Position numbers and translations under genes: made by a program. DNA of 64,000 nucleotides, taken from Campylobacterota bacterium (GTDB lineage: Bacteria; Campylobacterota; Campylobacteria; Campylobacterales; Thiovulaceae). Location: positions 201,174 through 265,173 of the forward strand of contig JASKOM010000001.1 in NCBI GenBank assembly GCA_030152305.1, given 5' to 3'. Shown piece by piece: positions 4,064 to 22,835 of this stretch. A model generated the notes under the pieces. The model was not told the DNA's origin. It was given only the letters and a program-made list of their open reading frames with translations, and searched no databases. Numbering within the stretch: position 1 is the first letter of the stretch; every line of letters starts with the position of its first letter.

Positions 4064-4214
4064 GATAAATCCTACATATTTTTATTTTATGAATTAAGCG
4101 AATTTTATCAAGATAAATCACAACGATAACGAGACAGTTTGATTATTAATAAAAGTTTTTTTATGCAACCTCATCATACTCTCGGAAACGGTCAGCAACC
4201 ATTCCCTGCAAATT

Positions 4215-4946
4215 TTACATGATCGTTTTTATCTTCCACTTGATTTGATTATATTTACCAACGATCGCAATTCCAAAATCACGACCAGATGAGGTCATCT
4301 TCCAAATGCCATTTTCTCGAACTTGAAAACCTTTGTTTGCCAACATCAAATTAATCTCGACCGCTGATTTATTTATCATTTTGCCTAATTCAGTTGGTAA
4401 AAAGAATTGTGAATCGAGATCGATCTTGAAAGTTTTGAGAGGTGAAGTTCCAAATTGTTGGAGCATGATTTTGTCAAAACGAAATAGAGTTGTCTGTTTT
4501 CGTGTTTCTAAATTTTCAATAAAACCTAACAGCTTGTTTGAATAAATTTCATAATCGTTAAGTTCATTTGTCAGTTTTAGAAAGTCATGATTTTGTGAAG
4601 TTTGTTGTTTTTTAAACTGTTTTTCAACATTAATAAAATATTTTCTCACAGCTCGACCAATTGGATTATTTTCAATCATTGCTAATTCTTTCGCAACATC
4701 AATCGTTACAAGACAATCTCGATATTCAGCATAACCATTTTGTCCATTTTCTCGATGAGTTACTAAACTTTTAGTATGCCAAATAAAGTCTTCGTTTTCA
4801 ATAAACTCAAATTTATTAATTCGATTATTTATCCAGTCGTTAAAACGACTTTTTATATTTAAATGTTCGTGTAATTTTCTAGCTGAAACAAAATTGATTT
4901 TTTCGTTAGAAATCTGATATTCTATAATTTCGAAATTCAAAGGCAA
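4215..4946 (-). CDS. phage-type antirepressor (AntA/Bro-like N-terminal domain plus KilAC-like C-terminal domain)
   Basis: 243 aa. The N-terminus (VSARKLHEHLNIKSRFNDWINNRI...ENEDF) has the AntA/BRO pattern. The C-terminal roughly 60 aa are duplicated at 5388-5572. Confidence 0.65.
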   Translation of the reverse strand: MPLNFEIIEYQISNEKINFVSARKLHEHLNIKSRFNDWINNRINKFEFIENEDFIWHTKSLVTHRENGQNGYAEYRDCLVTIDVAKELAMIENNPIGRAVRKYFINVEKQFKKQQTSQNHDFLKLTNELNDYEIYSNKLLGFIENLETRKQTTLFRFDKIMLQQFGTSPLKTFKIDLDSQFFLPTELGKMINKSAVEINLMLANKGFQVRENGIWKMTSSGRDFGIAIVGKYNQIKWKIKTIM

Positions 4947-5063: not shown

Positions 5064-5288
5064 TTGACATATCAAGATTACGAAATAAAAATAAAAAAAC
5101 TTAATTTATCATCTGGAAAATTAACTAAAATTATGGGAATGGCAAGAACAACACCATCAGCTGTTTGGAAAAAAAAGGGAGATATTCCTATTCCTATTGA
5201 GAGATTTTTAGAAGTTTTGGAAAAATTAACAGAAGATGAAAGAATATTATTTGTTCATCATAAATTAGAAAATTATAAAAATATTTAA
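5064..5288 (+). CDS. small Cro/CI-like helix-turn-helix protein (hypothetical)
   Basis: 74-aa ORF with a TTG start preceded by aaaggagg. The pattern LTKIMGMARTTPSAVWKKKGDIPIPIERFL resembles small phage HTH regulators and the minus-strand ORF at 5589-5848. Confidence 0.4.
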   Translation: MTYQDYEIKIKKLNLSSGKLTKIMGMARTTPSAVWKKKGDIPIPIERFLEVLEKLTEDERILFVHHKLENYKNI

Positions 5289-5326
5289 ATATTAAATTTG
5301 GATTACTATAAGTTTAGTAACCCATT

Positions 5327-5347
5327 ATTCCGTGCATTGACACGGGA
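5327..5347. terminator. TTCCGTG...CACGGGA hairpin (member of a recurring stem family)
   Basis: attccgtg-cattga-cacggga lies 39 nt downstream of the stop at 5288. The same stem sequence occurs at 8971, 34358 and 48053. Confidence 0.4.
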
Positions 5348-5387
5348 TCTTTTCTCGGAAACGGTCGGCGACCATTCTCTACAAATT

Positions 5388-5572
5388 TTACATGATCGTT
5401 TTTATCTTCCACTTAATCTGGTGATATTTACCAACGATCGCAATTCCAAATTCGCGACCCGATGAGGTCATTTTCCAAATGCCATTTTCTCGAATTTGAT
5501 AACCACGATTTGCCAACATCAAATTAATCTCGACTGGCGATTTATTGATCATTCCTCCAAGTTCGGTAAGTT
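5388..5572 (-). pseudogene. orphan 3' fragment of an antirepressor gene (KilAC-like tail)
   Basis: My translation is LTELGGMINKSPVEINLMLANRGYQIRENGIWKMTSSGREFGIAIVGKYHQIKWKIKTIM*. It is collinear with the last roughly 62 codons of 4215-4946 and has no N-terminal part. The 34 nt after the stop are also duplicated. Confidence 0.7.
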
Positions 5573-5588
5573 ATAAAAAGCAATATTA

Positions 5589-5848
5589 TTAACTTGAAAG
5601 CATTGTTACACGATTTGTAAATTCTTTAAATAATGAAATTGTTGATTTTTGTGTTTCATATTCACTTAAAATTTTCAAATATTGAGATCCACAAGTTGGT
5701 ATTTTTTGACCTGCCCCCAGTTTCTCAATGTTTGTTCAGCTATGCCCGTTTTAATAGCAAGTTCTTTATATGTAATTTTTAATAATTCACATGTTTTTTT
5801 AACAAGATTTTCTTCTTTGTCTTTTTCGGTTTTTTCGACTTCGCTCAA
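5589..5848 (-). CDS. small HTH protein, possibly frameshifted at a G5/C5 run
   Basis: My minus-strand translation from the TTG at 5848 gives MSEVEKTEKDKEENLVKKTCELLKITYKELAIKTGIAEQTLRNWG. The frame then stops after 56 aa, but a shift at ctgcccccag (5711-5720) continues as GAGQKIPTCGSQYLKILSEYETQKS...MLSS* ending at 5589. Confidence 0.35.
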
Positions 5849-5975
5849 GTTCAGTCCTTTTTTTAATTAATTTTTATTTCTCGTAATTTTAATATTTTTG
5901 CAATTTTTATATAAAAATCGTTTCTTGACTCTTTGATAAGATTCTTAAAAATTTGAAAGAAAATAAAATAATAAA

Positions 5976-8966
5976 ATGACTTCCGAAGAAATTAATAGAA
6001 AATTAGCTGATCCGAAACGGCTTTTGACTGATATATATTTTGAATTACAAGAAGCCTTTGAAAATAAATATGGCGAAAATGTTCTTATTTTTCTTGAATT
6101 GGGTAGCTTTTTTGAAATTTATTCGGTTGATAATGAACAGCTCAAAATTGGCAAAGCCCGTGAAGTTGCTGAAATGTTAAATATTCAGCTAACACGAAAA
6201 AATAAAAGTATCGCCGAAAATTCGATAAAAAATCCATTTATGGCTGGTGTTCCAACTGTTTCGTTTGAACGACATTTAAATAGAATTATTTCAGAAGCAA
6301 AATATACGATTGTTCTTATTCGTCAGCGAGGCGAACCGCCTCAAGTTGTTAGATATTTGCATCAAATTATTTCACCCGGAACAAATTTTGATTATTTGTC
6401 TGATAGTAACGAAAATTTTATTGTTGCTCTTTCGATTGATGCACATAAAAATAGCTATTCGATCGGTTATTCGGCTATTGATGTTTCAACTGGTGTTTCG
6501 TTAGTTTCTGAAATTCATAGCAGTATCGAAGATCAAAATTATGCTCTCGATGAGGTTTTTAATTTGTTGCATATTTATAAAAGTTCAGAAATCGTGTTGA
6601 ATTTTTTATCGAAATTTATAAATCAGCAAAAAATTATCGAATATCTCGAAGTGAAAAAAAATTATCATTATTCTGTTCATTCTGGACGAATAAAAATAGA
6701 TTTTCAAAATGAACTTTTTAAACGAGTTTTTAATACAAGTTCGTTTTTATCGCCAATCGAAGAGTTAAATCTTGAACATTTGCCACTTGCTTCTGAATCG
6801 TTGGCAATTTTGATCGAATTTATTTTTCAGCATGATTATAAAATCGTTGAAAGACTTGATCGTCCGCAAATTCTCGAAAATCGTAATCGATTATATTTAG
6901 GCAATAATGCAATTGAACAGTTAGATATTATAAAAAATATAAATGACAACGGTTTATTATCGTTGATTGATAAAAGTTCAACGGCAATGGGCAAAAGATT
7001 ATTAAAAGCTAGACTTTTAAATCCTGTTTCTGATTCGAAAGAGATTCGAGATCGTTTCGCTTTGAATGATCGAGTTTATCCGTTTTTGTCAGAAATCGAA
7101 TCGAATTTAAAAAAAATATATGATCTTGAGCGAATTTCTCGACGAATAAAATTAAAAAAATTACATCCGTTTGAAATAAATTATTTACATATTTCACTTT
7201 TGGCAGTTGTCGAAATTTCAAAACTTGTCAAAAAGAACCTCATCGAAGATTTTCATTTTTCAGAAAGTGAAATTCGTGGCATGATCGATTTAATCGAAAA
7301 TTATTTCGAACTTTCGATAACTCAAAAATATAATATTGACAAAATCGAAGAGAATCTTTTTTTGCATGGTGTCAGTCGCGAAGTTGATCGAATTGAAAAT
7401 GATATTTCAGGTTATATAAAAACTTTGAATTTAATCGTCGAGAAAATAGCAAGTTTATTAAAAACTAAAACGAATAAAAGCGACGGCGAAATGGTCAATT
7501 TGGGTTCTCTCGAAAAAGAAGGCTATTATATTTCGCTAACGGCAAATCGTTTTAATTTAATCGAACGAGATTTTCTCGAAGAAAAAATAATAATAGGCAG
7601 TCGAGAATATTTTTTTAGAGATTTTAAAATAAGAAAATTATCGAACAATGTAAAAATCACAGCTGAAATTATCGATAAATTTTCTGAACAGATTTCAGCT
7701 TCTCAAACTAAATTAGCTTCGTTAATATATGACGAATTTTTAATTCAGTTACATGAAATAGATCAAAAATATTCGATAATTCTAGAAAAAATCGCATATT
7801 TTATTGCCAAAATTGATATTGCAGTTTCAAATGGCAAAGTAAAAAATAGTTTAAAATATTCTCAACCTGAAATTATCGATGTTGATTCTGGTGATAATTT
7901 TTTACAAATTGCAAAATTAAGACATCCGTTAATTGAACGACGAGAATCAGCGGGAATTTTTGTTCCGAATGATATTTTTTTAGGCAAGAAAAAATATTTA
8001 ACAGATCTTGATAATTTTGATAAAAATGTTATCGATGCTACTGAAGATGAACAAATAAATGGCATTTTATTATATGGCATAAATTCGAGTGGCAAATCGT
8101 CATTAATGAAAAGTATCGGAATTGCGGTTATTCTTGCTCAAGGCGGTTTTCCAGTTCCAGCTGAAAGCATGAAATTTTCGTTATTCAAATCGCTTTTTAC
8201 TCGAATTGTTTCTCGAGATAATTTGCAAAAAGGACTTTCAAGTTTTGCCGTCGAAATGGTCGAATTAAAAAATATTTTTAATCGAGCAGGTGAAAAAACT
8301 ATCGTTTTAGGTGATGAGATTTCTCACGGAACTGAAACACTTTCGGGAGTTGCAATCGTTTCAAGTGCAATTATGCGACTTGTCGAAAATAAAACACTTT
8401 TTGTTTTTGCTACACATTTGCATCAATTAACGAAAATCGATGAGGTGCAAAATTTAACGACAGTTGTCAATTTGCATTTAGCCGTAAAATATGATGAAAG
8501 TAGTGATAAATTAATATTTAATCGAAAATTGCAAATTGGAAGCGGAAGTAGTATTTACGGGCTTGAATTCGCTCGTTCGTTGCATATGGATGAAAAGTTT
8601 TTAAAAAATGCGAATTCGATTCGAAAAAAATTAGCCGACGAATATAGCGACATCGAAATGTTAATGCAAAAAAAACAGAGCAAATATAACAGCAATTTAT
8701 ATTTAACGAAATGTATTATTTGTGGCGAAAAAGTAGATGATGTTCATCATATTGCAGAAAAAAAATTATCTCGAAACGGTTTTATTGGTCATTTTTCTAA
8801 AAATCACAAACATAATCTTATTCCACTTTGCAAAAATCATCATATGGCAATTCACGATAAAAAAATTGATGTCAAAGGTTTTATGATGACATCATCAGGT
8901 TTAGAATTGCATTATGAAGATGAGTCTGAACCTGAAACAGAAGAAAAGATAGAAAATAGAAACTAA
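5976..8966 (+). CDS. MutS-family ATPase with C-terminal HNH nuclease (MutS7-like)
   Basis: 996 aa. N-terminal MutS domain-I-like region (FMAGVPTVSFERHLNRII), core/clamp region, Walker A GINSSGKSS, Walker B LGDEISHGTE, and a C-terminal HNH (CIICGEKVDDVHHI...NLIPLCKNHHMAIH). Confidence 0.85.
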   Translation: MTSEEINRKLADPKRLLTDIYFELQEAFENKYGENVLIFLELGSFFEIYSVDNEQLKIGKAREVAEMLNIQLTRKNKSIAENSIKNPFMAGVPTVSFERHLNRIISEAKYTIVLIRQRGEPPQVVRYLHQIISPGTNFDYLSDSNENFIVALSIDAHKNSYSIGYSAIDVSTGVSLVSEIHSSIEDQNYALDEVFNLLHIYKSSEIVLNFLSKFINQQKIIEYLEVKKNYHYSVHSGRIKIDFQNELFKRVFNTSSFLSPIEELNLEHLPLASESLAILIEFIFQHDYKIVERLDRPQILENRNRLYLGNNAIEQLDIIKNINDNGLLSLIDKSSTAMGKRLLKARLLNPVSDSKEIRDRFALNDRVYPFLSEIESNLKKIYDLERISRRIKLKKLHPFEINYLHISLLAVVEISKLVKKNLIEDFHFSESEIRGMIDLIENYFELSITQKYNIDKIEENLFLHGVSREVDRIENDISGYIKTLNLIVEKIASLLKTKTNKSDGEMVNLGSLEKEGYYISLTANRFNLIERDFLEEKIIIGSREYFFRDFKIRKLSNNVKITAEIIDKFSEQISASQTKLASLIYDEFLIQLHEIDQKYSIILEKIAYFIAKIDIAVSNGKVKNSLKYSQPEIIDVDSGDNFLQIAKLRHPLIERRESAGIFVPNDIFLGKKKYLTDLDNFDKNVIDATEDEQINGILLYGINSSGKSSLMKSIGIAVILAQGGFPVPAESMKFSLFKSLFTRIVSRDNLQKGLSSFAVEMVELKNIFNRAGEKTIVLGDEISHGTETLSGVAIVSSAIMRLVENKTLFVFATHLHQLTKIDEVQNLTTVVNLHLAVKYDESSDKLIFNRKLQIGSGSSIYGLEFARSLHMDEKFLKNANSIRKKLADEYSDIEMLMQKKQSKYNSNLYLTKCIICGEKVDDVHHIAEKKLSRNGFIGHFSKNHKHNLIPLCKNHHMAIHDKKIDVKGFMMTSSGLELHYEDESEPETEEKIENRN

Positions 8967-8970
8967 TTCT

Positions 8971-8997
8971 ATTCCGTGTTCTAATTTAGCACGGAAT
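8971..8997. terminator. perfect 8-bp hairpin ATTCCGTG-N11-CACGGAAT after the mutS-like gene
   Basis: attccgtg ttctaatttag cacggaat starts 5 nt after the stop at 8966. Confidence 0.55.
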
Positions 8998-9055
8998 CAA
9001 AAAATATTAAAATATAAATACTAAAATTACGATAAATTAAAAGGTTCTTAAAAAA

Positions 9056-11944
9056 ATGATACACAAAAAGATTCTCGAGCGGGAATTAAAAAATATAAAT
9101 GAAATTGAAGTTAGCAGTGCTTTTGCAGGTTTGGAAAAGTTTAAAAACTCAATCGAAAATATCAAAAAAGCAAAAGAAGAAAGTTATCAATACGGTTTTC
9201 TCGAAGACTTTTTTGTAAAAAGCTTAGGCTATATATTAAATCCGTCGCCAAATTATAATTTGACAACTGAATTTAAAAACGAAAGCAACAATAAAAAAGC
9301 TGACGGTTCGATTTTGATAAATGGCAAACCGATCGCTGTTATCGAATTAAAATCAGTTGCAACGAAATCAATGGATAAAATCGTTGATCAAGCATTTAGT
9401 TATAAAAACAACCATCCAAGTTGTCATTATGTTATAACTTCTAATTTTGAAAAAATGCGGTTTTATATCGAATATTCAAATGAATTTATAGAATTTGATT
9501 TGTTTAACTTGCGGTTCGAAGATTTCAAAAAGCTTTATTTGTTGGTTGGGCGAAATTCGATTTTGAACGATTTGCCGAAAAAATGGCGAGACGAATCGAA
9601 ATATAATCAGGTGAATATAGCGAACGAGTTTTATAAAAAATTCTCGAATTTGCGAACCAGACTTTTTGATGAAATTGCAAATATAAATAAAATCGAAAAA
9701 TTAGATGCTCTTTCGCTTTCTCAAAAGTTGCTCGATAGAGCTATTTTTATATTTTTCGCTGGTGATCGAGGTTTAATCGATTCGAAAACGGTTGATGATT
9801 TTATCGCGAGATTTAAAAATGATCTCGAAGGTCGCGATTTATATCATTTTGTCAAGCTTTTATTCAAAGCGATTGATATTGGAAATGCAAAAATTAGAAT
9901 TCCTCCATATAATGGTGGCTTGTTTGCAAATGACGAAATTCTCGATTCGTTGAAAATTAGCGATTCGCTTTTGTTGGAAATATTGAATTTATCGAGTTAC
10001 GATTTTGAAAGTGATATCGATGTTAATATTTTAGGGCATATTTTTGAAAATAGCCTTGATGAACTTGAGAAAATTCGCGAAGATTTAATCGGTGGAAAAT
10101 TTGATTCGAATCGTTCAAAACGAAAACGAGACGGCATTTTTTATACTCCTAATTATATAACTGAATTTATAGTTGAGAATTCAGTTGGTGCAATTTGTGA
10201 AAAGCGAAAAGCTGAACTCGAATTAATTAATTTTGAAGATGCAAGTGAAGAAAAAATAAAAAGCTATTTAGATTTTTTGACAAATTTGAAAATTGTTGAT
10301 CCTGCTTGTGGTTCGGGAGCATTTTTAAATATGGCTTTTAACTATTTATTTGTTGAATATAAACATTGTTATGATATTTTAAACAATTTTGCGATGAAAA
10401 AAGGCGATTTATTTTTGAGTTCTGATTTTGATGTTTCGATTCTCGAGAATAATTTGTTTGGTGTTGATTTGAATGCTGAAGCGGTTGAAATTGCGAAATT
10501 GTCGCTTTGGTTGAAAACGGCAAAACGAAACAGAAAATTAACTGATTTGAATAAAAATATAAAAGTTGGTAATTCACTTATAAGTCATTCTGAATCTCAA
10601 ACATTAAAACAAGTTACAAAAGCTTTTGATTGGCAAAATGAATTTCCTGATATTTTTGCAAAAGGCGGTTTTGATATCGTAATCGGAAATCCGCCGTATG
10701 GTGCAAATATTGAACACGAAAAGACATTTTTTGAAATTCAATCTGGCGAAAGTGCAATTTTATTTATGCAACTTGCTCGTCAATTGTTAAAAAATAATGG
10801 AATTGCTGGTTTTATTGTTCCAAAACCTTTTCTTTATTCTTCGAGTTGGGAAGAAATTAGATCTGTTTTGAAAGAAGAAATTTCTCATATTGTTGATTGT
10901 GGCAAAGTTTGGGATGAAGTAAAATTAGAACAGGTGATATATATTTCTCATAAGTTAAATAAAATTGATAATTATAAAAATTACCAATTGGAAGAAACAA
11001 AATTTAAAGAATTATCAACAGTAAAAAAAGACCTCATCGAAAAATTTGGATTTTTTGTAAATGGAGTTAATCAGAGAGAAATAGAAATTGCTTTGAAAAT
11101 TAAAAAGCAGTTAAATAATTTGTTTGATATTTCAGCTGAATGTAGTCGTGGCGGAGCATTTCAACATGCAATCAATTCAACTGGAGAAATTCAAGTTTTA
11201 GGCGGAATTAATTTAGCAAGATATGAAATTAAAGATGTCAAAGGTTTTATTTCTTCAGATTTTGAAATTTCAAATGATTCTTTTATTAAAGCTAATTCGA
11301 TATTAGTTCAGAGAATTATTGCTCATATTCAAAATCCAACTGATCACATTAAATTGATAGGAACAATTAGCGATAACTTAAATAATATTGCCATTGTGAA
11401 TACAATTTACCAAATCACATTTGATGAAAAATATTCTAATAAATATATTCTCGCTTTACTTCATTCAAATTTAATAAATTGGTTTATTTATCGTTTTGTA
11501 TTCGCAAAAGCTATTAGAACAATGGATTTATCGAATCATGTAATAAAACGAATCCCAATTCCTGAAATTTCAGAAAATGAACAAAAACCGTTCGTCGAGC
11601 GAGTTGATAAATTGGTTGAACTTTATGCTCAACTTCAGCAAACCAAAAACGAATTTCTCGAAACTCTCGAACTCGAAAAGATTCCGCAAAAACTTGATAA
11701 TTTTGCAAAACTCGAATTTGACGAATTCATCATCGAATTATCAAAAGCGAAAAAAATAAAATTGTCTGACAAAAAATTAGAACGGGAATTTAAAAAAAGC
11801 TGGAAAAATATATTCGACGAAGATAAATCAAAAGTTCAAAACCTGCTCTCGCAAATTTCAAAAATCGAACACGAAATCGATCGTGAAGTTTATAAACTTT
11901 ATGCTTTAAACGAAGATGAAATAAAAATCATCGAGAATATATAA
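9056..11944 (+). CDS. Type IIG restriction-modification enzyme (fused PD-(D/E)xK nuclease, N6-adenine methyltransferase and specificity region)
   Basis: 962 aa. Nuclease-like DGSILINGKPIAVIELKS, methyltransferase motif I VDPACGSGAFL, motif IV GNPPYG, and a C-terminal tail (VYKLYALNEDEIKIIENI) typical of Eco57I/MmeI-like and PglX-like enzymes. Confidence 0.85.
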   Translation: MIHKKILERELKNINEIEVSSAFAGLEKFKNSIENIKKAKEESYQYGFLEDFFVKSLGYILNPSPNYNLTTEFKNESNNKKADGSILINGKPIAVIELKSVATKSMDKIVDQAFSYKNNHPSCHYVITSNFEKMRFYIEYSNEFIEFDLFNLRFEDFKKLYLLVGRNSILNDLPKKWRDESKYNQVNIANEFYKKFSNLRTRLFDEIANINKIEKLDALSLSQKLLDRAIFIFFAGDRGLIDSKTVDDFIARFKNDLEGRDLYHFVKLLFKAIDIGNAKIRIPPYNGGLFANDEILDSLKISDSLLLEILNLSSYDFESDIDVNILGHIFENSLDELEKIREDLIGGKFDSNRSKRKRDGIFYTPNYITEFIVENSVGAICEKRKAELELINFEDASEEKIKSYLDFLTNLKIVDPACGSGAFLNMAFNYLFVEYKHCYDILNNFAMKKGDLFLSSDFDVSILENNLFGVDLNAEAVEIAKLSLWLKTAKRNRKLTDLNKNIKVGNSLISHSESQTLKQVTKAFDWQNEFPDIFAKGGFDIVIGNPPYGANIEHEKTFFEIQSGESAILFMQLARQLLKNNGIAGFIVPKPFLYSSSWEEIRSVLKEEISHIVDCGKVWDEVKLEQVIYISHKLNKIDNYKNYQLEETKFKELSTVKKDLIEKFGFFVNGVNQREIEIALKIKKQLNNLFDISAECSRGGAFQHAINSTGEIQVLGGINLARYEIKDVKGFISSDFEISNDSFIKANSILVQRIIAHIQNPTDHIKLIGTISDNLNNIAIVNTIYQITFDEKYSNKYILALLHSNLINWFIYRFVFAKAIRTMDLSNHVIKRIPIPEISENEQKPFVERVDKLVELYAQLQQTKNEFLETLELEKIPQKLDNFAKLEFDEFIIELSKAKKIKLSDKKLEREFKKSWKNIFDEDKSKVQNLLSQISKIEHEIDREVYKLYALNEDEIKIIENI
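11631..11944 (+). repeat. copy 1 of a 314-bp direct repeat (3' end of the Type IIG gene)
   Basis: Aligns without gaps to 14265-14578 (offset 2634). About 5 mismatches in the first roughly 270 bp by hand alignment; the last roughly 45 bp are clearly diverged. Confidence 0.9.
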
Positions 11945-11963
11945 AATTCTTAAGTTTTCTTTT

Positions 11964-12030
11964 CTTCGATGATGTTTAGTTTTTATTAATTAAAACCTCA
12001 TCGGGGAATTTGGGATAGAATTACAGCAAA
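11964..12030. repeat. junction repeat copy a (imperfect GATGATGT/ACCTCATC hairpin plus G/A-rich tail)
   Basis: ttcgatgatgtttagtttttattaattaaaacctcatcggggaatttgggataga. Homologous to 14158-14230 and more loosely to 30731-30822. Probably the terminator of the Type IIG gene. Confidence 0.55.
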
Positions 12031-12052
12031 ATATAACTAGCAAGATAAAAAT

Positions 12053-12580
12053 ATGAGACAAGAAAAAATTAATTATATACAAGCAGTTGTAACAGAAATA
12101 AGAAAGTATTTTCAATTAAAAGATTTTTTATCAAGAGAAGATTTAACTAATTTAGTGGAAAAATTAGAAGGTAGTTTAGAATTTCAATTTGACTTAGATG
12201 TTGATGCTAAAATAGAAAGAATAGATAAAAATTTTAAGATTACTATTAAACCGTCTAACTTAGCATTAAGAGACAACTTTAGTATAGCTCATGAGTTGGG
12301 GCATTTATTTTTACATATGGGTTATCTAATAGATAATAACATGTGGATGAACTCTAAGCTTAGATATGATCGTTTTGGTTATTCTCAAGAAGAATTTGAA
12401 GCAAATGAGTTTGCAGGTAATTTACTTATGCAAGAACATTTGTTTATTAAAGAATTTAGAAACAATTATGACTCTAAACAGCAAGTAGTTAATCTAAAAA
12501 AAATGAGCAAAATATTTAATGTTTCTCCAAAAGCAATTGAAGTTCGTGCCAAAAATATAGGTTTGATTAAACAGTGTTAG
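12053..12580 (+). CDS. ImmA/IrrE-family (COG2856-like) zinc metallopeptidase
   Basis: 175 aa. HEXXH in SIAHELGHLFLH, followed by the family-typical EEFEANEFAGNLLM. The stop overlaps the GTG start of the next ORF (gtgttag). Confidence 0.75.
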   Translation: MRQEKINYIQAVVTEIRKYFQLKDFLSREDLTNLVEKLEGSLEFQFDLDVDAKIERIDKNFKITIKPSNLALRDNFSIAHELGHLFLHMGYLIDNNMWMNSKLRYDRFGYSQEEFEANEFAGNLLMQEHLFIKEFRNNYDSKQQVVNLKKMSKIFNVSPKAIEVRAKNIGLIKQC

Positions 12581-13200
12581 AAGATTTAAGCAATAACTTA
12601 CAAACTGTCAATCGAGAACATACTAATAAAGATGAGTCTGGAGTATTCGTATTTTTCTCTTTTGATCTTGTTAATTCAACACTGTTTAAAACATTACATC
12701 AAAATAATTGGTTTGTTTTTATTAAAGAATTTTATGATTCCATCATATCTATTCGAAAACATGAACCTACCATTACATTATGGAAATATGTTGGTGATGA
12801 GGTCTTATTTTATAAAAAAATATTAGACAAAAACGAAATTTATAATTTATTATTAAAAACTAGAGAAATCATAGATTATACAGAGCGAAAACTACAAGAA
12901 ATTGATCTTATAGAACAAGAATCAAATAAATGTAAAACAAATTTAGATATAAAACTATATGTCAAAGCAACTTTATGGATTGCAAAAGCTTCAAAAAATG
13001 TAAAAGGATCAAAAAATATTGTTATTGATACTGAAAAAGGTCTTGATTTTATAGGAGAAGATATTGATTTAGGCTTTAGAATATCTAAATATTCATTTGA
13101 TTCAAAAATAGTTCTTGATGCAATAATCACTTATATGCTGATCAAACAGGAACATGAAATAAAAAAGAAATATCATATATCAATAAGGCACATATATTAA
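12574..13200 (+). CDS. class III nucleotidyl-cyclase-like domain protein (5' part of a frameshifted gene)
   Basis: 208 aa. FFSFDLVNST matches the FaDivGfT metal-Asp strand, WKYVGDEVLFY matches the K-x-iGD strand, and FIGEDIDLGFRISKYSFDSKIVL matches the G-x-x-VN-x-A-x-R segment. The final cyclase strands continue in the +1 frame from 13187. Confidence 0.5.
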   Translation: MLEDLSNNLQTVNREHTNKDESGVFVFFSFDLVNSTLFKTLHQNNWFVFIKEFYDSIISIRKHEPTITLWKYVGDEVLFYKKILDKNEIYNLLLKTREIIDYTERKLQEIDLIEQESNKCKTNLDIKLYVKATLWIAKASKNVKGSKNIVIDTEKGLDFIGEDIDLGFRISKYSFDSKIVLDAIITYMLIKQEHEIKKKYHISIRHIY

Positions 13201-13288
13201 AATCGTTTCATTTGAAGAGTTAAAAGGTGTTTGGAACAGTAGAAAATATCCCATCATTTGGTATGACGAATCGTGGGATATTCAAAAG

Positions 13289-13900
13289 ATGTTTAAATAT
13301 GATGATAGATTTAATAATAAAATCGTTGAAAATATTATAAATGGTTCTTTTTCTAAATATTCAAATATTATAGATTTAGAGCATATTTTAAAAGATTTAA
13401 ATAAGCTTGATTTAGTTCAAGATTTAGAATTAACAATTAAGAATACTAAAAAGACAAAACCTATTTTAGAAAAGAAATTATCAGAAATACATTGTGTAGC
13501 TATCAGCTTCTATGAAACAAAAGTATTAATTGGTAAACGAAAAGCAAATAAAGAACTATTGCCAAATGTATGGGATTTTGGTTGTGCAAAAATGGGATTT
13601 AAGGATACATTTCAAGATGCAATAAAACGAGATTATAAAACGGATTTCAATGTAGATTTAATTTTAGAAGAAAATGATTTAACACCTATTGCAACATATA
13701 CAATAGAAAAATCTTCTGTTTCTGGTGTAATATTTGTGGCTAAAATTCATGACATTAGTATATTAAAATCTAATAAACATAGTGAATCTAAAATGTTAGA
13801 TATTGCTGAAGTTAAAGATTTCATAAATAATAATGAAACTATTCCAAATTTTGAATCTACTATAAATAAAGCATACGAATTATTCATAAAAAAATTTTAA
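13289..13900 (+). CDS. 3' part of the same gene: end of the cyclase domain, linker, and a degenerate Nudix-like domain
   Basis: This frame is already open from 13187 (GTYIKIVSFEELKGVWNSRKYPIIWYDESW...). The C-terminal VLIGKRKANKELLPNVWDFGCAKMGFKDTFQDAIKRDYKTDFNV follows the Nudix layout, but the Nudix-box glutamates are largely replaced (RDYKTD instead of RExxEE). Confidence 0.4.
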   Translation: MFKYDDRFNNKIVENIINGSFSKYSNIIDLEHILKDLNKLDLVQDLELTIKNTKKTKPILEKKLSEIHCVAISFYETKVLIGKRKANKELLPNVWDFGCAKMGFKDTFQDAIKRDYKTDFNVDLILEENDLTPIATYTIEKSSVSGVIFVAKIHDISILKSNKHSESKMLDIAEVKDFINNNETIPNFESTINKAYELFIKKF

Positions 13901-14157
13901 TTTAAAAATTAAATAGAGATAAATCAGATGTTATCAGAGAATTAATTGAAGAATTTGCTAAAACATCAGAATTTAATAGCTTTATTGAGCATATTGAAAA
14001 GTGGTTGTTAAACCGAAAAGAAGCTTTAAAACTTTAATCTCCAAAAATATTAAAATTAAATTAACATAAGAAATTTGTCATTTTAAAGAATTAAAAATTA
14101 TTGATTATTCTTGGCTAAATCGCTGAAATTTGGCATTACGGCATATATTTTTTATTT

Positions 14158-14230
14158 ATTCGATGAGGTCTAGTTTTTATGAAATCTCATCGAAGAGAAT
14201 TTGAGATTTGAGAGTAGCGAAGTTTTATAG
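14158..14230. repeat. junction repeat copy b (GATGAGGT / ATCTCATC hairpin plus GAGAATTTGAGATTTGAGAG tail)
   Basis: ttcgatgaggtctagtttttatgaaatctcatcgaagagaatttgagatttgagagtagcgaagtt. Homologous to copy a and to 30731-30822. Confidence 0.55.
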
Positions 14231-14264
14231 TTTGTAAAAAAGACTGTTCTAAATTTAAATTATA

Positions 14265-14578
14265 AAGTTCAGCAAACCAAAAACGAATTTCTCGAAACTC
14301 TCGAACTCGAAAAGATTCCGCAAAAACTTGATAATTTTGCAAAACTCGAATTTGACGAATTTATCATCGAATTATCAAAAGCGAAAAAACTAAAATTGTC
14401 TGACAAAAAATTAGAACGGGAATTTAAAAAAAGCTGGAAAAATATATTCGACGAAGATAAATCAAAAGTTCAAAATCTGCTCTCACAAATTTCAAAAATC
14501 GAACACGAAATCGATCGTGAAGTTTATAAACTTTATGGCTTAACTCGAAATGAAATAGAAATCGTGGAGAAAATATAA
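14265..14578 (+). pseudogene. orphan 3' fragment of a Type IIG RM gene (copy 2 of the 314-bp direct repeat)
   Basis: In-frame translation is ...QQTKNEFLETLELEKIPQKLDNFAKLEFDEFIIELSKAKKLKLSDKKLEREFKK...VYKLYGLTRNEIEIVEKI*. It has no upstream methyltransferase or nuclease part. The track ORF 14396-14578 is its tail. Confidence 0.85.
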
Positions 14579-14664
14579 AAAGCTAAATCGCAACTTACAA
14601 ATCATAATTCTTAGATCCCGAAACAAGCTCCAGTAACTTGTTTCTTGATTGTTGTTTTTTTTAA

Positions 14665-15276
14665 TTAAATATTCGATAAATAATAACTTATTGATGTTTT
14701 TCCAAATTTTTTTGTTTTAATTAAATTTAAATTTCCAAGTTGCAGATTAGGATTATAACTTGACATGTGTTCTAATATAATAATATTAAAATTATTATTA
14801 TTTTTTAATAAAAGTTCTATTTTATTATAAATATTTGTCATACCATCGCGAATAGCAAATGGTGGATCGATATATAAAATATAATTTGACGACAATGTAT
14901 TTTTAGCAAGTTTTTTTAAATTCTCAAAACTATCACCAGCGATTATTTCAAGATTATTTTGTGTAATTTCATGTGATAAAAAAAGTTCTCGATTTTTATG
15001 TAAAGTATAAAGTGCCTCTTTGTTTATTTCAAAGAATATTATTTTTTCGGCTCCTCGAGAAAGAGCTTCGAATCCAATAGAACCACTTCCAGCAAACAGT
15101 TCTACAAAAGTAGAACCTCTAATTTCGATTTGAAGCGAATCAAAAATAGAATCTCTAACTATTGATTTCGAAGGTCTCGTTTTATCAGTTTGTGGCAATA
15201 AAATTTTCTTGCCTTTATATTTACCACCGCTAATTAATATAAACAATTGTTTATCTGTTTTTTGATTATTTTTCAA
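14665..15276 (-). CDS. rsmD: 16S rRNA (guanine966-N2)-methyltransferase RsmD
   Basis: 203 aa. SAM motif ELFAGSGSIGFEALSRGA and catalytic DPPF (YIDPPFA). Confidence 0.8.
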   Translation of the reverse strand: MKNNQKTDKQLFILISGGKYKGKKILLPQTDKTRPSKSIVRDSIFDSLQIEIRGSTFVELFAGSGSIGFEALSRGAEKIIFFEINKEALYTLHKNRELFLSHEITQNNLEIIAGDSFENLKKLAKNTLSSNYILYIDPPFAIRDGMTNIYNKIELLLKNNNNFNIIILEHMSSYNPNLQLGNLNLIKTKKFGKTSISYYLSNI

Positions 15277-15598
15277 GCATTCTCCTGATTTTAATTTCTA
15301 AACTTGAATTATGTTCAGAAATTAATTTTAATATTTCAGATTCTATTATATTATTATCTTTTATTATAGGAGTTATGTTTTTATTTTTTAACATATTTTC
15401 CAATTGTTTAATTTGTTCAATAATTTTTTCAAAATCCAAATTTAATGTAAAATCGATAAAAATAATATTATTACCTGATAAATTTTTGCGATCTGTAATA
15501 ATAATTTGCGAAGAATTTTCATTAAAATAAATAAAGTCTTTTAATTTAATTTCTAAGATTCGTTGAGTTAAAGGTGAATAACAATCAATAATAATCAT
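15266..15598 (-). CDS. hypothetical protein
   Basis: 110-aa ORF overlapping the rsmD start by 11 nt. No recognisable motif. Confidence 0.4.
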   Translation of the reverse strand: MIIIDCYSPLTQRILEIKLKDFIYFNENSSQIIITDRKNLSGNNIIFIDFTLNLDFEKIIEQIKQLENMLKNKNITPIIKDNNIIESEILKLISEHNSSLEIKIRRMLEK

Positions 15599-15617
15599 AA
15601 ATTACTTCTTATTTAAT

Positions 15618-16100
15618 TTATTTTGAACTTCGAACACAACGAACATAATGAGTTGCATTTGTATAAGAAAAGTCATCATATCCAGCTTCAAAATCGATAA
15701 ACCAAGCTTCATCTTCTTCATTTTTGGCAGTTGCAGCATGATCAGAAAGACTCCAATAGTCGCCTTCGTTACCCATATTATGTTTTAATTTAATTTTTAT
15801 AAAAAACCTACCATTTTTAGATTTTTCATTTTTTAAGAACCATTTGTTCCAATTGGCATTATATTCGCCAAACATTGGCACATTTGAAGTAGTTCTTAAT
15901 TGTGTTGTTGATGGTAGCCACCAATCATCAAAACCATTTAACATTAAAGTATCGCAATAGCTATTAGCCTCTTTCCAGTTATATTCTTTCATGATATTAA
16001 CATCACTTTTTATTTCCCACATAAGTCCTGTGTCATCATCAGTCCAAACGGCTGAAAACAGCCATTGAACACAAGTCAATAAAAATACTAAAAACTTCAA
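15618..16100 (-). CDS. secreted DUF1566-like (Lcl C-terminal-like) domain protein
   Basis: 160 aa. Signal peptide (MKFLVFLLTCVQWLFSA), then WTDDDTGLMWE...WWLPSTTQL...YWS...YVRCVR, the pattern of DUF1566 proteins. Confidence 0.55.
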   Translation of the reverse strand: MKFLVFLLTCVQWLFSAVWTDDDTGLMWEIKSDVNIMKEYNWKEANSYCDTLMLNGFDDWWLPSTTQLRTTSNVPMFGEYNANWNKWFLKNEKSKNGRFFIKIKLKHNMGNEGDYWSLSDHAATAKNEEDEAWFIDFEAGYDDFSYTNATHYVRCVRSSK

Positions 16101-16115
16101 GGTATATTTAAATAT

Positions 16116-16949
16116 TTAAGATAAAAGTTTTAAAGTGGCTAGAGCTAATTTATAAATTGGTTCGTCTATAAATCCATATTTTTCATGAGAAAAGCCATGA
16201 ACTCCTTGCTTAACCATTGATTCATATATTTCTACAATATCTCGAGATCTTTCAAACTCATAATCATTAATTACAAAAGTTTTAAAAATTTCTGATACTT
16301 GAGTTGTAGAAATTGCACCTTTTGCTAAATATCCCATTCTTTTTTCTAGATTTAACCATTTAGTAAAAAGTTCTGTATTTTTATAATCTTGAAAAACTGG
16401 AGCAACTGGAAAAGCGCCGAGAGCATTACTTTGAAATAAAAAATGAGATAAAACATATTGAACAGTTGGGTTATCTGGATGAATTAATTCATGTCTGAAA
16501 CCCAAATCAGCAAACAAATCCAAAATGCCCAAATAAAAAACAGTAACTCGTTCATTAATTTTTAAATTATTTAATTCTAGCCATGCTAAACGAGTTTCTA
16601 TCGATAAATGAATATCTATATTTGGCTTTGAAGCTGATAGGGCCATTGCGACATCGCCTTTGTTTCTAACTTTTGGAATTCGATAGGCATCTGGTTTAAA
16701 CGAATTAAATTTTAATATTTCTTCGATTCCACCTTCAAACAAAGGACGAGTTCTAATTATTAACATGCGAGGATCTTTTCTTGGTTCTGATAAAAATTTC
16801 TCAAGATTTTCAACGGCTTTTTTATAATCACTGACACCATCTTCTAAATTTAAAATAACAGAATCAGTCATTATTTCCCAAATCTTCGAAACATGTTTAT
16901 CATTATCCATAGAAACCATTAAAGGAGCTAACGGAAATTTATTTCTCAT
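16116..16949 (-). CDS. HpcH/HpaI aldolase / citrate-lyase beta (CitE)-like protein
   Basis: 277 aa. LNLEDGV matches the CitE DLEDaV motif; the YRIPKV, SIET...L and FYLGILDLFADLG segments follow in CitE order. Confidence 0.5.
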   Translation of the reverse strand: MRNKFPLAPLMVSMDNDKHVSKIWEIMTDSVILNLEDGVSDYKKAVENLEKFLSEPRKDPRMLIIRTRPLFEGGIEEILKFNSFKPDAYRIPKVRNKGDVAMALSASKPNIDIHLSIETRLAWLELNNLKINERVTVFYLGILDLFADLGFRHELIHPDNPTVQYVLSHFLFQSNALGAFPVAPVFQDYKNTELFTKWLNLEKRMGYLAKGAISTTQVSEIFKTFVINDYEFERSRDIVEIYESMVKQGVHGFSHEKYGFIDEPIYKLALATLKLLS

Positions 16950-16970
16950 TTTATTCTTTCTTTAAATATA

Positions 16971-18233
16971 TTAATTAGGCGATGCTATATATCCAGCAAT
17001 AGCACTAGCAGCAGCAACAGCTGAATTCGATAAATAAATTTGAGAACTTCTTGCACCCATTCGACCGACGAAATTTCTATTTGTTGTTGAAATTGCAACT
17101 TCATTATCAGCTAGAATACCCATATAACCGCCTAAACAAGCTCCACAAGTTGGATTACTCACAACGGCTCCAGCATCGATTAAATCTTTAATATAACCTT
17201 TTGACGAAGCCTCTTCGAGAATCTTTTGAGTTGCAGGTGTTACGATCATTCGAGTATGTCTAGCTACTCTTTTGCCTTTGACAATTTTTGATGCAATTTC
17301 AATATCCGATAAACGACCATTTGTGCAACTTCCGATAAATACTTGATCTATTTTTATTTTCGAATTAACAGCTTCAGAAAGTGGATGACCATTTGATGGC
17401 AAATGCGGATAAGCAATAACAGGTTCTAAATTATTAACATCAATTTCAATAATTTTTATATATTTTGCATCAGAATCTGAACTATAAAATTTTGGTTCTC
17501 GAGTTAAATTTTTATCAGCTAAAAATTTTTTCGTTACCTCATCGGCTTCGATAATTCCAGATTTTGCACCTGCTTCAATTGCCATATTACATAAAGCAAA
17601 ACGATTATCCATATCTAAACTTGCAATCGTTGAACCAGTGAATTCAAGGGCTTGATATAAAGCACCATCAACACCGATTAATCTAATTAATTCTAAAATT
17701 AAATCTTTGCCACCGACATGTTTTTTTAATTTGCCATTAAATACAACTTTAATAGTTTCAGGAACTTTAAACCAATTGCCACCTGTAACCATTGCATAAG
17801 CTAAATCAGTTGATCCCATTCCTGTTGCAAAAGCGCCTAATGCTCCGTGTGTGCAAGTATGAGAATCGGCACCAATAATTACATCACCAGGTAAAACAAG
17901 ACCTTTTTCAGGCAAAAGTGCATGTTCAATTCCCATATCTTTTTCATCAAAAAAATATTTTAAATCATGTTCATAAGCAAAATCGCGACTTATTTTTGCC
18001 TGATTTGCCGATGCGATATCTTTTGCGGGAATAAAATGATCTAAAACTATCGAAAAAGCTTCTGGATTTGCTAATCGTTCAGCTCCACTATCTCGAAATG
18101 CTTTAATCGAAAGCGGAGTTGTTATATCGTTTCCGATAACCATATCAATTTGAACTTCGACGATTTCTCCAGCTCGAACAGTTTTTCCTGCATGAGCCGA
18201 GAATATTTTTTCTGTAATCGTTAAACCTGACAT
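16971..18233 (-). CDS. leuC: 3-isopropylmalate/homoaconitate dehydratase large subunit (aconitase family, short LeuC type)
   Basis: 420 aa. Fe-S ligand motifs GADSHTCTHGALGAFATGMG and GSCTNGR, plus NRNFVGRMG. Confidence 0.85.
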   Translation of the reverse strand: MSGLTITEKIFSAHAGKTVRAGEIVEVQIDMVIGNDITTPLSIKAFRDSGAERLANPEAFSIVLDHFIPAKDIASANQAKISRDFAYEHDLKYFFDEKDMGIEHALLPEKGLVLPGDVIIGADSHTCTHGALGAFATGMGSTDLAYAMVTGGNWFKVPETIKVVFNGKLKKHVGGKDLILELIRLIGVDGALYQALEFTGSTIASLDMDNRFALCNMAIEAGAKSGIIEADEVTKKFLADKNLTREPKFYSSDSDAKYIKIIEIDVNNLEPVIAYPHLPSNGHPLSEAVNSKIKIDQVFIGSCTNGRLSDIEIASKIVKGKRVARHTRMIVTPATQKILEEASSKGYIKDLIDAGAVVSNPTCGACLGGYMGILADNEVAISTTNRNFVGRMGARSSQIYLSNSAVAAASAIAGYIASPN

Positions 18234-18251
18234 TTATTTCTCCATAATTAA

Positions 18252-18995
18252 TTACATGTGTAATCCGCCATTAACTTTTAAGGTTTCACCAGTAATATAA
18301 CTAGCTCCATCACTTAAAAGAAAAGCGACTGCTTCAGCAACTTCTCGACCTAAGCCAAATCTTTTTAATGGAATATCTGACATATAGCTATTTTTGACAT
18401 CTTCAGAAAGTGATGAGGTCATATCAGTTTCGATAAATCCTGGAGAAATGACATTAAATCGAACATCACGAGATGCACCTTCGAGGGCGAAGCTTTTTGT
18501 CATCGAAATAACGGCACCTTTAGAAGCGGAATAATTTGTTTGACCGATATTTCCAGTTTCGCCAACGATCGAAGCAATATTAACAACTGAACCGAATCGT
18601 TTTTTGCTCATAATTTTCAAGGCTTCACGGCAACCATAAAAAGTCGAATTTAAGTTGCCACGAATGACACTATTAAAATCTTCGCCTTTCATTCTGATAG
18701 CTAATTTATCATTAGTAATTCCTGCATTATTAACTAAATAGCTTAATTCACCGTCAGATTCGATAATAGTTTTAATGCCAGATATAAAACTTTCTTCATC
18801 ACTTGCATCAAATTTAATAATAGCCGAAGATAATTTTTTATCATTTAATTCGCTATGTAAACGATCAGCTTCAACAAAAGAATTTTTATAATTAATCCAA
18901 ACTTTTAAGCCATAATTAGCAAGAACACGAGCAATTTCAGCACCGATACCGCGACTTGCACCAGTAATTAATACATTTTTTCCAGAAAATTTCAA
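18252..18995 (-). CDS. fabG: 3-oxoacyl-[acyl-carrier-protein] reductase FabG
   Basis: 247 aa SDR. TGASRGIG, NNAG, YSASKGA and the C-terminal GETLKVNGGLHM. Confidence 0.88.
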   Translation of the reverse strand: MKFSGKNVLITGASRGIGAEIARVLANYGLKVWINYKNSFVEADRLHSELNDKKLSSAIIKFDASDEESFISGIKTIIESDGELSYLVNNAGITNDKLAIRMKGEDFNSVIRGNLNSTFYGCREALKIMSKKRFGSVVNIASIVGETGNIGQTNYSASKGAVISMTKSFALEGASRDVRFNVISPGFIETDMTSSLSEDVKNSYMSDIPLKRFGLGREVAEAVAFLLSDGASYITGETLKVNGGLHM

Positions 18996-19027
18996 ATTAT
19001 CTCCAATATAATTTTTATAATATTTAA

Positions 19028-19360
19028 TTAGCTTAAAGCTTCAATTTTATTTTTTAAATTTATCATTTCTTCTTCAAGTCGTTTTTTCTCAAATTTAAGA
19101 GAAGAATGACTTTGTTTAACACCTTTTAGATCGGCTTTAATAGAAATCATCTCTGAAGTCATTAAATCAACATTGCCGAGAGATCTTTGAAGTTGAACTT
19201 GATATTTTCTAATAAGAGTTTCTGCTTCTCTAAGTGTTGTTTTCATGACACTTGTCCCTTTTTGTTCTTTTTCGAGCATATTTTTATAAAATAAAACTTG
19301 TAAAAATAAAAAAAGAGCTGTAAGTGAAACAACAGATAGTAGTGTCCATTCGAGAAACAT
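19028..19360 (-). CDS. hypothetical membrane-anchored coiled-coil protein
   Basis: 110 aa. An N-terminal TM helix followed by heptad-like sequence. Confidence 0.45.
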   Translation of the reverse strand: MFLEWTLLSVVSLTALFLFLQVLFYKNMLEKEQKGTSVMKTTLREAETLIRKYQVQLQRSLGNVDLMTSEMISIKADLKGVKQSHSSLKFEKKRLEEEMINLKNKIEALS

Positions 19361-19372
19361 TTATATAAAAAC

Positions 19373-19885
19373 CTATAATTTTTCGCTAGAGCTTTCGATC
19401 GAGTTAATTTTGATAACTCTTTGTAAGTGGCGACCACCTTCAAATTTCGTCGAATTCCAAGCTGAAATAATAGACTCAACTGTTCCTTCTCCAGTAGTTC
19501 TAGCACCGAAACATAAAATATTGCCATTGTTATGAGCTCGACCCATTTCAGCGGTATAAGCATCATGACAAAGAGTTGCACGAATTCCATTAATTTTATT
19601 AGCAGTTATACTCATGCCGATACCAGTTCCACAGATTAAAATGCCATAAACACCAGTTTCTTGCCAATCTAAATTTTCATTTATATTTCCAGATAATTCC
19701 AAAACTCGTTTAGAAACTTTAACGGCAAAATCAGGATAATCAACTCTTTGACTGTCAAAAGGGCCGAGATCTTCGACATCGTTACCCATTTTTTCTAATA
19801 AATCTTTAACAAAATTTTTCATGATTAATCCAGCATGATCAGTGCCAATTATATATTTCAAAGCATATCTCCTTAATAAATACAT
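19373..19885 (-). CDS. rpiB: ribose-5-phosphate isomerase B
   Basis: GTDHAG near the N-terminus, CGTGIGMSITANK, NILCFGARTTG. The true start may be internal to the 170-aa ORF. Confidence 0.88.
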   Translation of the reverse strand: MYLLRRYALKYIIGTDHAGLIMKNFVKDLLEKMGNDVEDLGPFDSQRVDYPDFAVKVSKRVLELSGNINENLDWQETGVYGILICGTGIGMSITANKINGIRATLCHDAYTAEMGRAHNNGNILCFGARTTGEGTVESIISAWNSTKFEGGRHLQRVIKINSIESSSEKL

Positions 19886-19935
19886 TATATTTTTAAATAT
19901 TAAAACACGAAATTATATCAATCGAATTTGTGGGA

Positions 19936-20949: not shown

Positions 20950-20969
20950 AACAGTCCTCCTATTTTTTA

Positions 20970-21500: not shown

Positions 21501-21515
21501 TTTATAAAATCCTTG

Positions 21516-21860: not shown

Positions 21861-21938
21861 TAGGCTATCTCCAATTTGTTATATTTTAATTTAGTATCCT
21901 GAATTATTATTATCAAGATACTAAACTTTTTAATTAAA

Positions 21939-22823: not shown

Positions 22824-22835
22824 TTTTTTGAATTT

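Follow-up and report, generated by a model that had tools for sequence, protein, structure and literature searches.

A direct repeat of a Type IIG restriction-modification gene tail brackets a candidate defence cassette in a member of the Campylobacterota

The 64,000-nt stretch of DNA analyzed here (the window; contig JASKOM010000001.1, positions 201,174 to 265,173, of the Campylobacterota bacterium assembly GCA_030152305.1) carries an island in which the 3′ end of a Type IIG restriction-modification gene occurs twice. One copy ends the intact gene and the other, headless, lies 2,634 bp downstream; between them is a cassette comprising an ImmA-like gene, a cyclase-NUDIX gene and non-coding DNA. 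We give about an even chance to the reading that homologous recombination in the final 300 bp of the Type IIG gene placed a ∼2.3-kb foreign segment directly behind it. What we observed directly comprises the repeat and its boundaries, the genes and foreign composition of the insert, a lack of mobility genes, and junctions that recur in a second assembly. The genes and repeat copies concerned, and the DNA to their right, are:

9056..11944, + strand: intact Type IIG restriction-modification gene, 962 aa (Pfam, PADLOC)
11631..11944, + strand: repeat copy A, codons 860–962 and stop of the intact Type IIG gene
11904..11938, + strand: divergent patch of the repeat, with 11 mismatches to copy B over 35 positions and 7 resulting amino-acid changes
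14265..14578, + strand: repeat copy B, an orphan 5′-truncated Type IIG tail, in frame internally, with stops upstream and without a start codon in context
14579..14664, no strand: spacer between the orphan tail and the convergent rsmD, with a stem-loop at 14625–14649 and then a T run
14665..15276, − strand: rsmD, the housekeeping gene that adjoins the island on its right (NCBIfam TIGR00095, 9e-43)

When aligned, positions 11581–11994 and 14215–14628 share a direct repeat of 314 bp that has no gaps and is offset by 2,634 bp. The outermost left edge is at 11631/14265 and the match is solid from 11634/14268. According to a base-by-base comparison, copies A and B differ at 16 positions (∼95% identity over 314 bp). 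One mismatch is at the left edge (11633), four occur in the 270 bp from 11634 to 11903 (at 11728, 11756, 11842 and 11851), and 11 are clustered in 11904–11938, after which ATATAA and two As are identical again. Identity within the repeat switches from 98.5% to 73% (divergence from 1.5% to 27%) for the last 41 bp, and the uninterrupted identical runs measure 94, 85 and 52 bp. These data bear out the first-pass annotation of this DNA, which had described a gapless 314-bp tail repeat around the cassette with about five mismatches followed by divergence; its coordinates, counts and quoted peptides were correct. Flank alignment revealed no similarity between A and B to the left of 11631/14265 or more than 2 bp past the stop codons. 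The left edge of the repeat corresponds to codon 860 and the right edge to 2 bp after the stop. Besides the A/B pair, a scan of the whole window for direct repeats of at least 45 nt found only a second pair in this island and a weak 47-mer, so repeats of this kind are no background feature of the DNA.

The four mismatches in the 270-bp stretch comprise three synonymous changes and one conservative I→L substitution. For the 267 nt preceding the divergent patch, dN was 0.005 and dS 0.064 (dN/dS ∼0.07, from 4 substitutions), and within the patch the values were 0.34 and 0.43, respectively. Overall, 8 of 103 residues differ between the copies. When only the tail served as query, a word-indexed protein search gave no match at all and missed even the window's own gene; an exhaustive search of 1.84 billion representative proteins was then run, in which copy B best matched the window's own Type IIG protein (P0001; 91%), with the next match at 55%. 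Left of 14265 no Type IIG coding remnant was found, the in-frame translation containing stops and blastx giving no match. A degraded continuation of the gene in this direction was also considered; the ∼40% identity, in AT-rich DNA, was taken as no evidence. There is no open reading frame (ORF) between copy B and rsmD. Copy B is most likely a non-functional pseudogene fragment, the scar of a recombination event.

The interval between the copies, 11945–14264 (2,320 bp), contains the following:

12053..12580, + strand: ImmA/IrrE-type M78 metallopeptidase gene, 175 aa, with an HExxH motif (Pfam Peptidase_M78, 1.1e-13; PADLOC CapP, 9.5e-20, and RmrA)
12574..13900, + strand: class-III-cyclase-like and NUDIX fusion gene, frameshifted (two ORFs, 12574–13200 and 13202/13289–13900)
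13901..14148, no strand: non-coding stretch, no Pfam match

The cyclase-like ORF overlaps the ImmA stop and runs for 208 codons, and a 203-codon ORF follows in another frame. The blastx match shifts from frame +1 to +2 near 13187–13197, marking a 1-nt frameshift. With the joined frames as query, 128 proteins were retrieved, the full-length ones being ∼430–510 residues long (about 460 aa) and covering 85–100% of the joined sequence. Because the homologues are single proteins and the blastx match switches frame, the cyclase-like ORF and the next one constitute a single gene broken by the frameshift. The cassette described in the first-pass annotation, an ImmA gene and a cyclase gene with non-coding relics, is thus present in the 2,320 bp, with the refinement that its 'cyclase' is the first part of a cyclase-NUDIX gene. 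As judged from the reading frames, the cassette appears to be already inactivated in this assembly.

A profile of 35 homologues compared with the PDB matched MutT-type hydrolases over the C-terminal third (2.2e-8), the NUDIX part. In the AlphaFold model of one homologue, P0121 (mean pLDDT 86.7), the N-terminal half matched class III adenylyl and guanylyl cyclases (CyaC and CyaB; E ∼4e-9; TM 0.65–0.77), and a predicted cyclase-like fold for this half is supported. The two metal-binding aspartates are invariant in the alignment of the cyclase-like family, and the label 'cyclase' in the first-pass annotation is thus a reasonable one. A Pycsar- or CBASS-like defence was considered for the cassette and rejected: there is no effector gene in 11945–14264, and the cyclase part was hit by none of PADLOC's models for Pycsar and CBASS. 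For the non-coding stretch at 13901–14148, neither blastx nor blastn gave a match to any fetched protein or locus. Part of it, 13903–14039, resembles the C-terminal half of a small ribbon-helix-helix-type protein (…SDVIRELIEEF…), a candidate assignment that is not confirmed.

The pair of ImmA/M78 and cyclase-NUDIX genes recurs as a two-gene unit in unrelated genomes (loci L003–L009). In two of the three genomic settings examined (L003 and L005/L006), a Type IIG/Eco57I-type gene lies within a few kb of the pair; in the third (L007/L008), a PycTM gene stands beside it. The pair gives weak matches to the PADLOC candidate families PDC-S07 and PDC-M69B, and one keyword search of the literature found no paper on such a module. 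The module may represent an uncharacterised defence system.

The base composition sets the insert apart. CpG occurs at ∼5 per 100 bp in the MutS-like gene upstream, in most of the Type IIG gene and in both tails, and at ∼0.7 per 100 bp over 12000–14100. This drop indicates that the insert is foreign to its surroundings and of another origin. Immediately before copy B, in 14100–14264, the DNA looks CpG-rich again (5 CpG in 165 bp).

No integrase, recombinase or transposase gene was found in the insert or within at least 10 kb on either side (1–31 kb of the window examined). Inverted repeats of at least 45 nt are absent from the 64-kb window, and the insert has no terminal inverted repeats. Housekeeping genes flank the island, with ychF and arsB on one side and rsmD, leuC, fabG and others on the other. 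Searches of plasmid and phage DNA collections and two scans of viral contigs, using the region or the gene as query, gave no match. A site-specific integrative element or a transposon with the repeats as its ends would account for direct repeats around a cassette at the 3′ end of a gene, much as att sites are placed, but the insert is unmatched in those collections and has neither the enzymes nor the terminal inverted repeats of such elements. More specifically, no tyrosine or serine recombinase gene lies within or beside the element, which argues against site-specific integration. A DNA transposon would leave a short (2–14 bp) target duplication, far shorter than 314 bp, and a duplication of this length without a transposase therefore rules out transposition. 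Altogether, an element of either kind is extremely improbable. The earlier view that the repeat is far too long for a transposition duplication, and that recombination fits better, agrees with the absence of transposase, integrase and inverted repeats, the foreign insert, the abrupt edge of the orphan and the long identical runs.

We examined the junctions in an independent k = 31 assembly (Logan) of run SRR24719468, from which three contigs were recovered by exact-protein look-up. All three were 100% identical to the window, covering 5822–10513, 11874–14297 (L028) and 14564–28233 (L027), respectively. L028 comprises the A-specific end, the whole cassette including the frameshift, and the first 30 bases of copy B, and it stops on both sides at precisely the points where this repeat forces a 31-mer graph to break. 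L027 joins the B-specific end to rsmD. Since L028 and L027 match the window, the junctions between the A end and the cassette, between the cassette and the B start, and between the B end and rsmD are real.

The first-pass annotation had named an assembly artefact as what would overturn its reading, and an artefact, in which the repeat was mis-joined or duplicated, has in its favour that the near-identical 270-bp core exceeds the k-mer size. From the k = 31 graph alone, the integrated form is for this reason indistinguishable from a chromosome without the cassette accompanied by a 2,634-bp circle. Against an artefact, there are 16 differences between the copies, their four flanks are all unique and unlike one another, the second assembly reproduces the three junctions outside the repeat base for base, and the assembly of the window resolved the repeat with its single-nucleotide differences in phase. 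An artefact is unlikely, and we give it only a very small chance. The Logan contigs also break at 5822, 10513 and 14564, where the window contains no repeat of at least 16 nt, and the adjacent 16 kb of core genes is unbroken. Such breaks may simply be coverage gaps, or parts of the island may exist as further copies or alleles elsewhere in the genome or the sample.

The integration that we favour would most simply have taken one crossover that joined a circular DNA to the chromosome. On that circle would have been the 3′ part of a closely related Type IIG allele, from codon 860 through the stop, and the DNA that followed it. Campbell-type insertion-duplication of this kind would leave the insert flanked on either side by a copy of the homology; because the homology segment includes the stop codon, the gene would stay intact, and the other copy would be left as a headless orphan. 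The outcome would be what the Kobayashi laboratory has termed 'insertion with long target duplication'. We infer the recombination route, the circular intermediate and which copy is the donor's. The observed geometry is that of a Campbell-type event, two copies of the same extent and orientation bounding the insert with abrupt edges, and we prefer this route because one event suffices for the tail repeat.

The position of the right edge is informative: 2 bp past the stop is where copies of one gene in different surroundings diverge, and a random target duplication would rarely end there. We therefore favour the view that the two tails are alleles of working genes from different backgrounds rather than the product of duplication on the spot; this is suggested by the edge at the gene end, the mostly synonymous changes (four only) and the jump in divergence from 1.5% to 27%. 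The recurrence of the cassette pair near Type IIG/Eco57I-type genes makes a donor order of Type IIG gene and then cassette plausible.

Several observations weigh against integration in a single event. No cassette-free or differently filled site, and no close relative of the genome or gene, was found among genome contigs, metagenome contigs and protein collections. The search with the Type IIG protein returned the protein itself at 100% and the next at 55%; a scan of genome contigs gave one Type IIG relative, at 46% identity; a metagenome scan anchored on rsmD gave 17 loci, at ≤46% identity and without synteny; and exact look-ups of the Type IIG and AntA proteins gave no match. No circular form or donor is known. 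The dN/dS argument is based on four substitutions, a small sample. To account for the 41-bp patch at 73% identity, one must further assume either that the alleles already differed as mosaics or that conversion followed later. The switch from 98.5% to 73% had been proposed to mark the boundary of a gene-conversion tract; that is one reading, and a mosaic difference already existing between the donor and recipient alleles explains it equally well. Finally, an inner pair of repeats, described next, and the CpG-rich DNA at 14100–14264 show that the history of the locus involved at least two steps, which keeps C-terminal displacement and truncation of a second gene in contention, and the tail duplication may predate the cassette.

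The inner direct repeat, U, also brackets the cassette:

11955..12016, + strand: U-A, 62 nt, imperfect hairpin CGATGATG...CCTCATCG; weaker similarity to ∼12051, just before the ImmA start codon
14149..14207, + strand: U-B, hairpin CGATGAGG...TCTCATCG; weak similarity to ∼14240

U-A and U-B are ∼84% identical with two small gaps, and the local alignment score was 49, as compared with 20.6 ± 2.9 for shuffled sequences. The weaker similarity extends for ∼35 more bases. The order of elements is tail A, U-A, cassette, relic, U-B, ∼57 bp, tail B, stem-loop and rsmD. An Rfam scan of 11500–14800 gave a single chance, sub-threshold miRNA match over U-A, and the hairpin corresponds to no known RNA family. 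Integron attC sites were considered for the U hairpins and rejected: R″/R′ boxes (RYYYAAC/GTTRRRY) are lacking, the window has no integron integrase, and there are two copies only. In the unrelated genome L005, a cassette of the same type is bracketed by an 85-nt direct repeat (5185–5336 and 7597–7694, with a third, weaker copy at 4169–4230) whose local alignment score was 96 versus 19.9 ± 2.6 for shuffles, a parallel to U-A and U-B. L003 and L007 showed no such repeat around the cassette.

The Type IIG protein has, in order, an N-terminal nuclease, an MmeI-like helical spacer, an Eco57I-type methyltransferase, a TaqI_C recognition domain and a conserved C-terminal tail. Pfam matched Eco57I (5.6e-35), MmeI_Mtase, HSDR_N and TaqI_C (aa 714–835), and the PADLOC REase_MTase_IIG model matched at 4.8e-163. 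The nuclease, a gamma-class N6-adenine methyltransferase with the NPPY motif and the recognition domain are present in one polypeptide, as expected for Type IIG. Codons 860–962 form a C-terminal module beyond the recognition domain, with 35–58% identity at the extreme end of all family members examined. The nearest other Type IIG protein, at 55% identity, is non-syntenic and in an unrelated context.

The gene appears to be a mosaic. A CpG-poor block at 10800–11500, spanning the region before and including TaqI_C, interrupts an otherwise CpG-rich gene. Relatives that match the protein best over its first 580 residues (P0005, P0007, P0024 and others) have unrelated sequence from aa ∼585 to ∼855–860 and are similar again from aa ∼856–864, where the orphan tail begins. 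Together, the CpG-poor block and the unrelated central region suggest a past swap of the recognition block. A boundary at codon 860 is visible in the subset of homologues with a different recognition block, which is suggestive only; across all 107 homologues no sharp family-wide domain boundary was visible there. Orphan tails were not found beside the Type IIG homologues in loci L001 and L002. In a subgroup of homologues (P0018, P0025, P0049, P0050, P0054, P0055 and others; 1,160–1,350 aa), the predicted protein also contains a Y1 transposase/RayT domain (PF01797). Provided that these genes were called correctly, a restriction enzyme is here joined to a REP-associated transposase, which is unusual.

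Directly upstream of the Type IIG gene lies a MutS homologue (5976–8966, 996 aa) with all MutS domains and a C-terminal HNH nuclease. It presumably resembles the MutS7 type, which occurs in epsilon-proteobacteria, octocoral mitochondria and giant viruses. The two genes share a high CpG content (observed/expected ∼2, versus 1.1–1.2 in the rest of the window) and probably arrived together.

The second pair of repeats in the island involves an antirepressor gene:

4215..4946, − strand: AntA-type antirepressor gene, the last 54 codons of which are repeated as an orphan
5388..5552, − strand: AntA orphan tail ORF, part of the repeat at 5353–5579

The repeat, 4180–4406 versus 5353–5579, is 227 nt long at 85–88% identity and consists of the last 54 AntA codons and 35 downstream bases. 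Most of the differences between its copies are synonymous (dN/dS 0.14). With the orphan located upstream of the intact gene, simple insertion-duplication fails as an explanation. Small helix-turn-helix genes at 5064–5288 and 5675–5848 lend, with AntA, a phage-like regulatory flavour to the left part of the island, where no integrase or structural phage gene is present.

The AntA orphan bears on another possible, though clearly less probable, origin for the Type IIG tails, namely that copy B is the remnant of a second or older Type IIG gene. The two genes would have formed a tandem pair, or an incoming copy would have displaced the resident one; the 5′ 2.6 kb of the downstream copy would have been deleted or overwritten, sparing its last 104 codons, and the cassette would have arrived independently through an event that duplicated U. 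Such a truncated second copy is what an orphan upstream of its intact gene requires in the case of AntA. Both tails and 14100–14264 are CpG-rich and the cassette is not, and without the cassette and one copy of U the tails would stand ∼130 bp apart in CpG-rich DNA like that of the backbone. The Type IIG gene is itself a mosaic, as described above, and displacement that leaves orphaned 3′ regions is known from Rhs and type VI secretion system (T6SS) loci (PMC5361080). However, this history needs more events (acquisition or duplication, a 2.6-kb deletion and insertion of the cassette), there is no trace of Type IIG coding sequence left of 14265, and no second allele or paralogue with a B-type tail was present among the 1.84 billion representative proteins.

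Three recombination routes fit the data, namely Campbell integration; one-sided, homology-facilitated illegitimate recombination or C-terminal displacement, by which an incoming copy would replace the resident gene except for its end; and truncation of a second tandem gene. The first-pass annotation had offered replacement of a second Type IIG gene or entry of the cassette through tail homology. Recombination in kind is upheld, and the two alternatives are inseparable, no close relative being present in the collections searched. A further, improbable reading is that in this lineage the conserved 3′ ends of mobile genes, here the Type IIG gene and, 9 kb to the left, AntA, act as 'homology handles' in an integrase-free exchange in which small defence cassettes leave as circles and re-enter any genome with a tail that is similar enough. 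The orphan tails would then be footprints, and the Logan breaks at 10513 and 14564 would reflect co-existing variants of the locus.

Among the described systems that come close to the locus is insertion with long target duplication at restriction-modification loci, in which repeats of 46–423 bp occur without mobility genes (Nobusato et al. 2000; Furuta, Abe & Kobayashi 2010, PMC2853133), mostly in naturally competent bacteria, including epsilon-proteobacteria (PMC2853133). The likeness lies in long direct repeats around a small insert of defence genes, without integrase or transposase and with a composition unlike the host's. Of the features by which Furuta et al. (2010) defined their cases, the locus has direct repeats longer than 30 bp (314 bp) and an insert shorter than 20 kb (2,320 bp) without mobile-element genes, but not restriction and modification genes inside the insert, the Type IIG gene lying outside. 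In the cases of PMC2853133, restriction-modification genes are the cargo and a sister genome has a single-copy target; here the restriction gene supplies the repeat, the cargo is the ImmA and cyclase-NUDIX pair, and no empty site is available. A pure target duplication also does not predict the sharp divergence in the last 41 bp.

The Campbell-type geometry has a laboratory precedent in E. coli, where single crossovers with circles carrying a gene-end fragment (the lacZ end) gave duplications of 109–950 bp (PMC3240628). As here, the gene remains intact when the segment includes its 3′ end, and the reverse crossover excises the insert; that work, however, used a known plasmid, whereas no circular donor is known for the present locus. 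C-terminal displacement with orphan 3′ fragments, in Rhs, CDI and T6SS loci, has been attributed to homology-facilitated illegitimate recombination (PMC5361080). These loci likewise have a full-length gene followed by a 5′-truncated fragment in the same orientation, homologous to a conserved part, and recombination can swap the C-terminus. Their orphans, in contrast, encode alternative toxin domains with immunity genes and occur in arrays. Copy B is a truncated homologous downstream fragment as in such arrays, but it encodes no alternative C-terminal domain: it differs by 8 residues, is not accompanied by a cognate partner and is located past the variable recognition domain.

In Type I hsdS and Type IIG genes, specificity switches by domain movement or shufflons (PMC3077401, PMC3467074). 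Conserved arms around a variable recognition block are common to those systems and this mosaic Type IIG gene. Those systems, however, move recognition domains, often via inverted repeats and a recombinase, whereas the present orphan starts at codon 860, after TaqI_C, the repeats are direct and exclude the recognition domain, and there is no recombinase. Overall, the first-pass interpretation is partly supported; the U repeat, the frameshift in the cassette, the second orphan tail, the described class of long target duplication and the single-crossover precedent were absent from it.

A crossover between the two tails would remove exactly 2,634 bp, that is, the cassette and one copy of the repeat. 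The enzyme would then end in the B-type …YGLTRNEIEIVEKI instead of …YALNEDEIKIIENI (last 13 residues), fused to the stem-loop before rsmD. Exact deletion with a swap of the C-terminal tail, as foreseen in the first-pass annotation, is thus what the repeat allows. Identities of such length suffice for occasional RecA-dependent deletion. The repeat is outside the recognition domain, so specificity should stay unchanged, and the repeats are direct, so the change would be a loss and not a switch.

These properties make it highly doubtful that the locus is a programmed variation device, with the orphan as a silent cassette that switches the C-terminus of the enzyme, or with excision as a means of turning the defence cassette off, in either case at a useful frequency. 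The identical runs of 94, 85 and 52 bp would support RecA-dependent deletion, and the Logan breaks at 10513 and 14564, without a repeat in the window, could reflect co-existing variants. Nevertheless, TaqI_C (aa 714–835) lies outside the repeat, leaving specificity unchanged, and deletion between direct repeats is irreversible. There is, moreover, no recombinase gene, the orphan is a single copy, and the cassette appears already inactivated by its frameshift.

Annotation should treat the orphan as a fragment of a pseudogene and merge the cyclase and NUDIX ORFs into a single broken gene. The locus also yields a prediction of instability: the 2,634-bp unit is losable by recombination between the repeats. 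The event is a recombination scar of an already described kind and involves no new mechanism, and the ImmA and cyclase-NUDIX module, the AntA orphan tail and the assembly breaks may merit more attention than the repeat itself. The locus adds a further data point on recombination-driven turnover of defence islands, from a lineage for which no close relative was found. On the reading that we favour, it would exemplify the growth of a defence island without a dedicated mobility enzyme: recombination via the end of a resident restriction-modification gene would have brought in a candidate defence module and left a datable scar.

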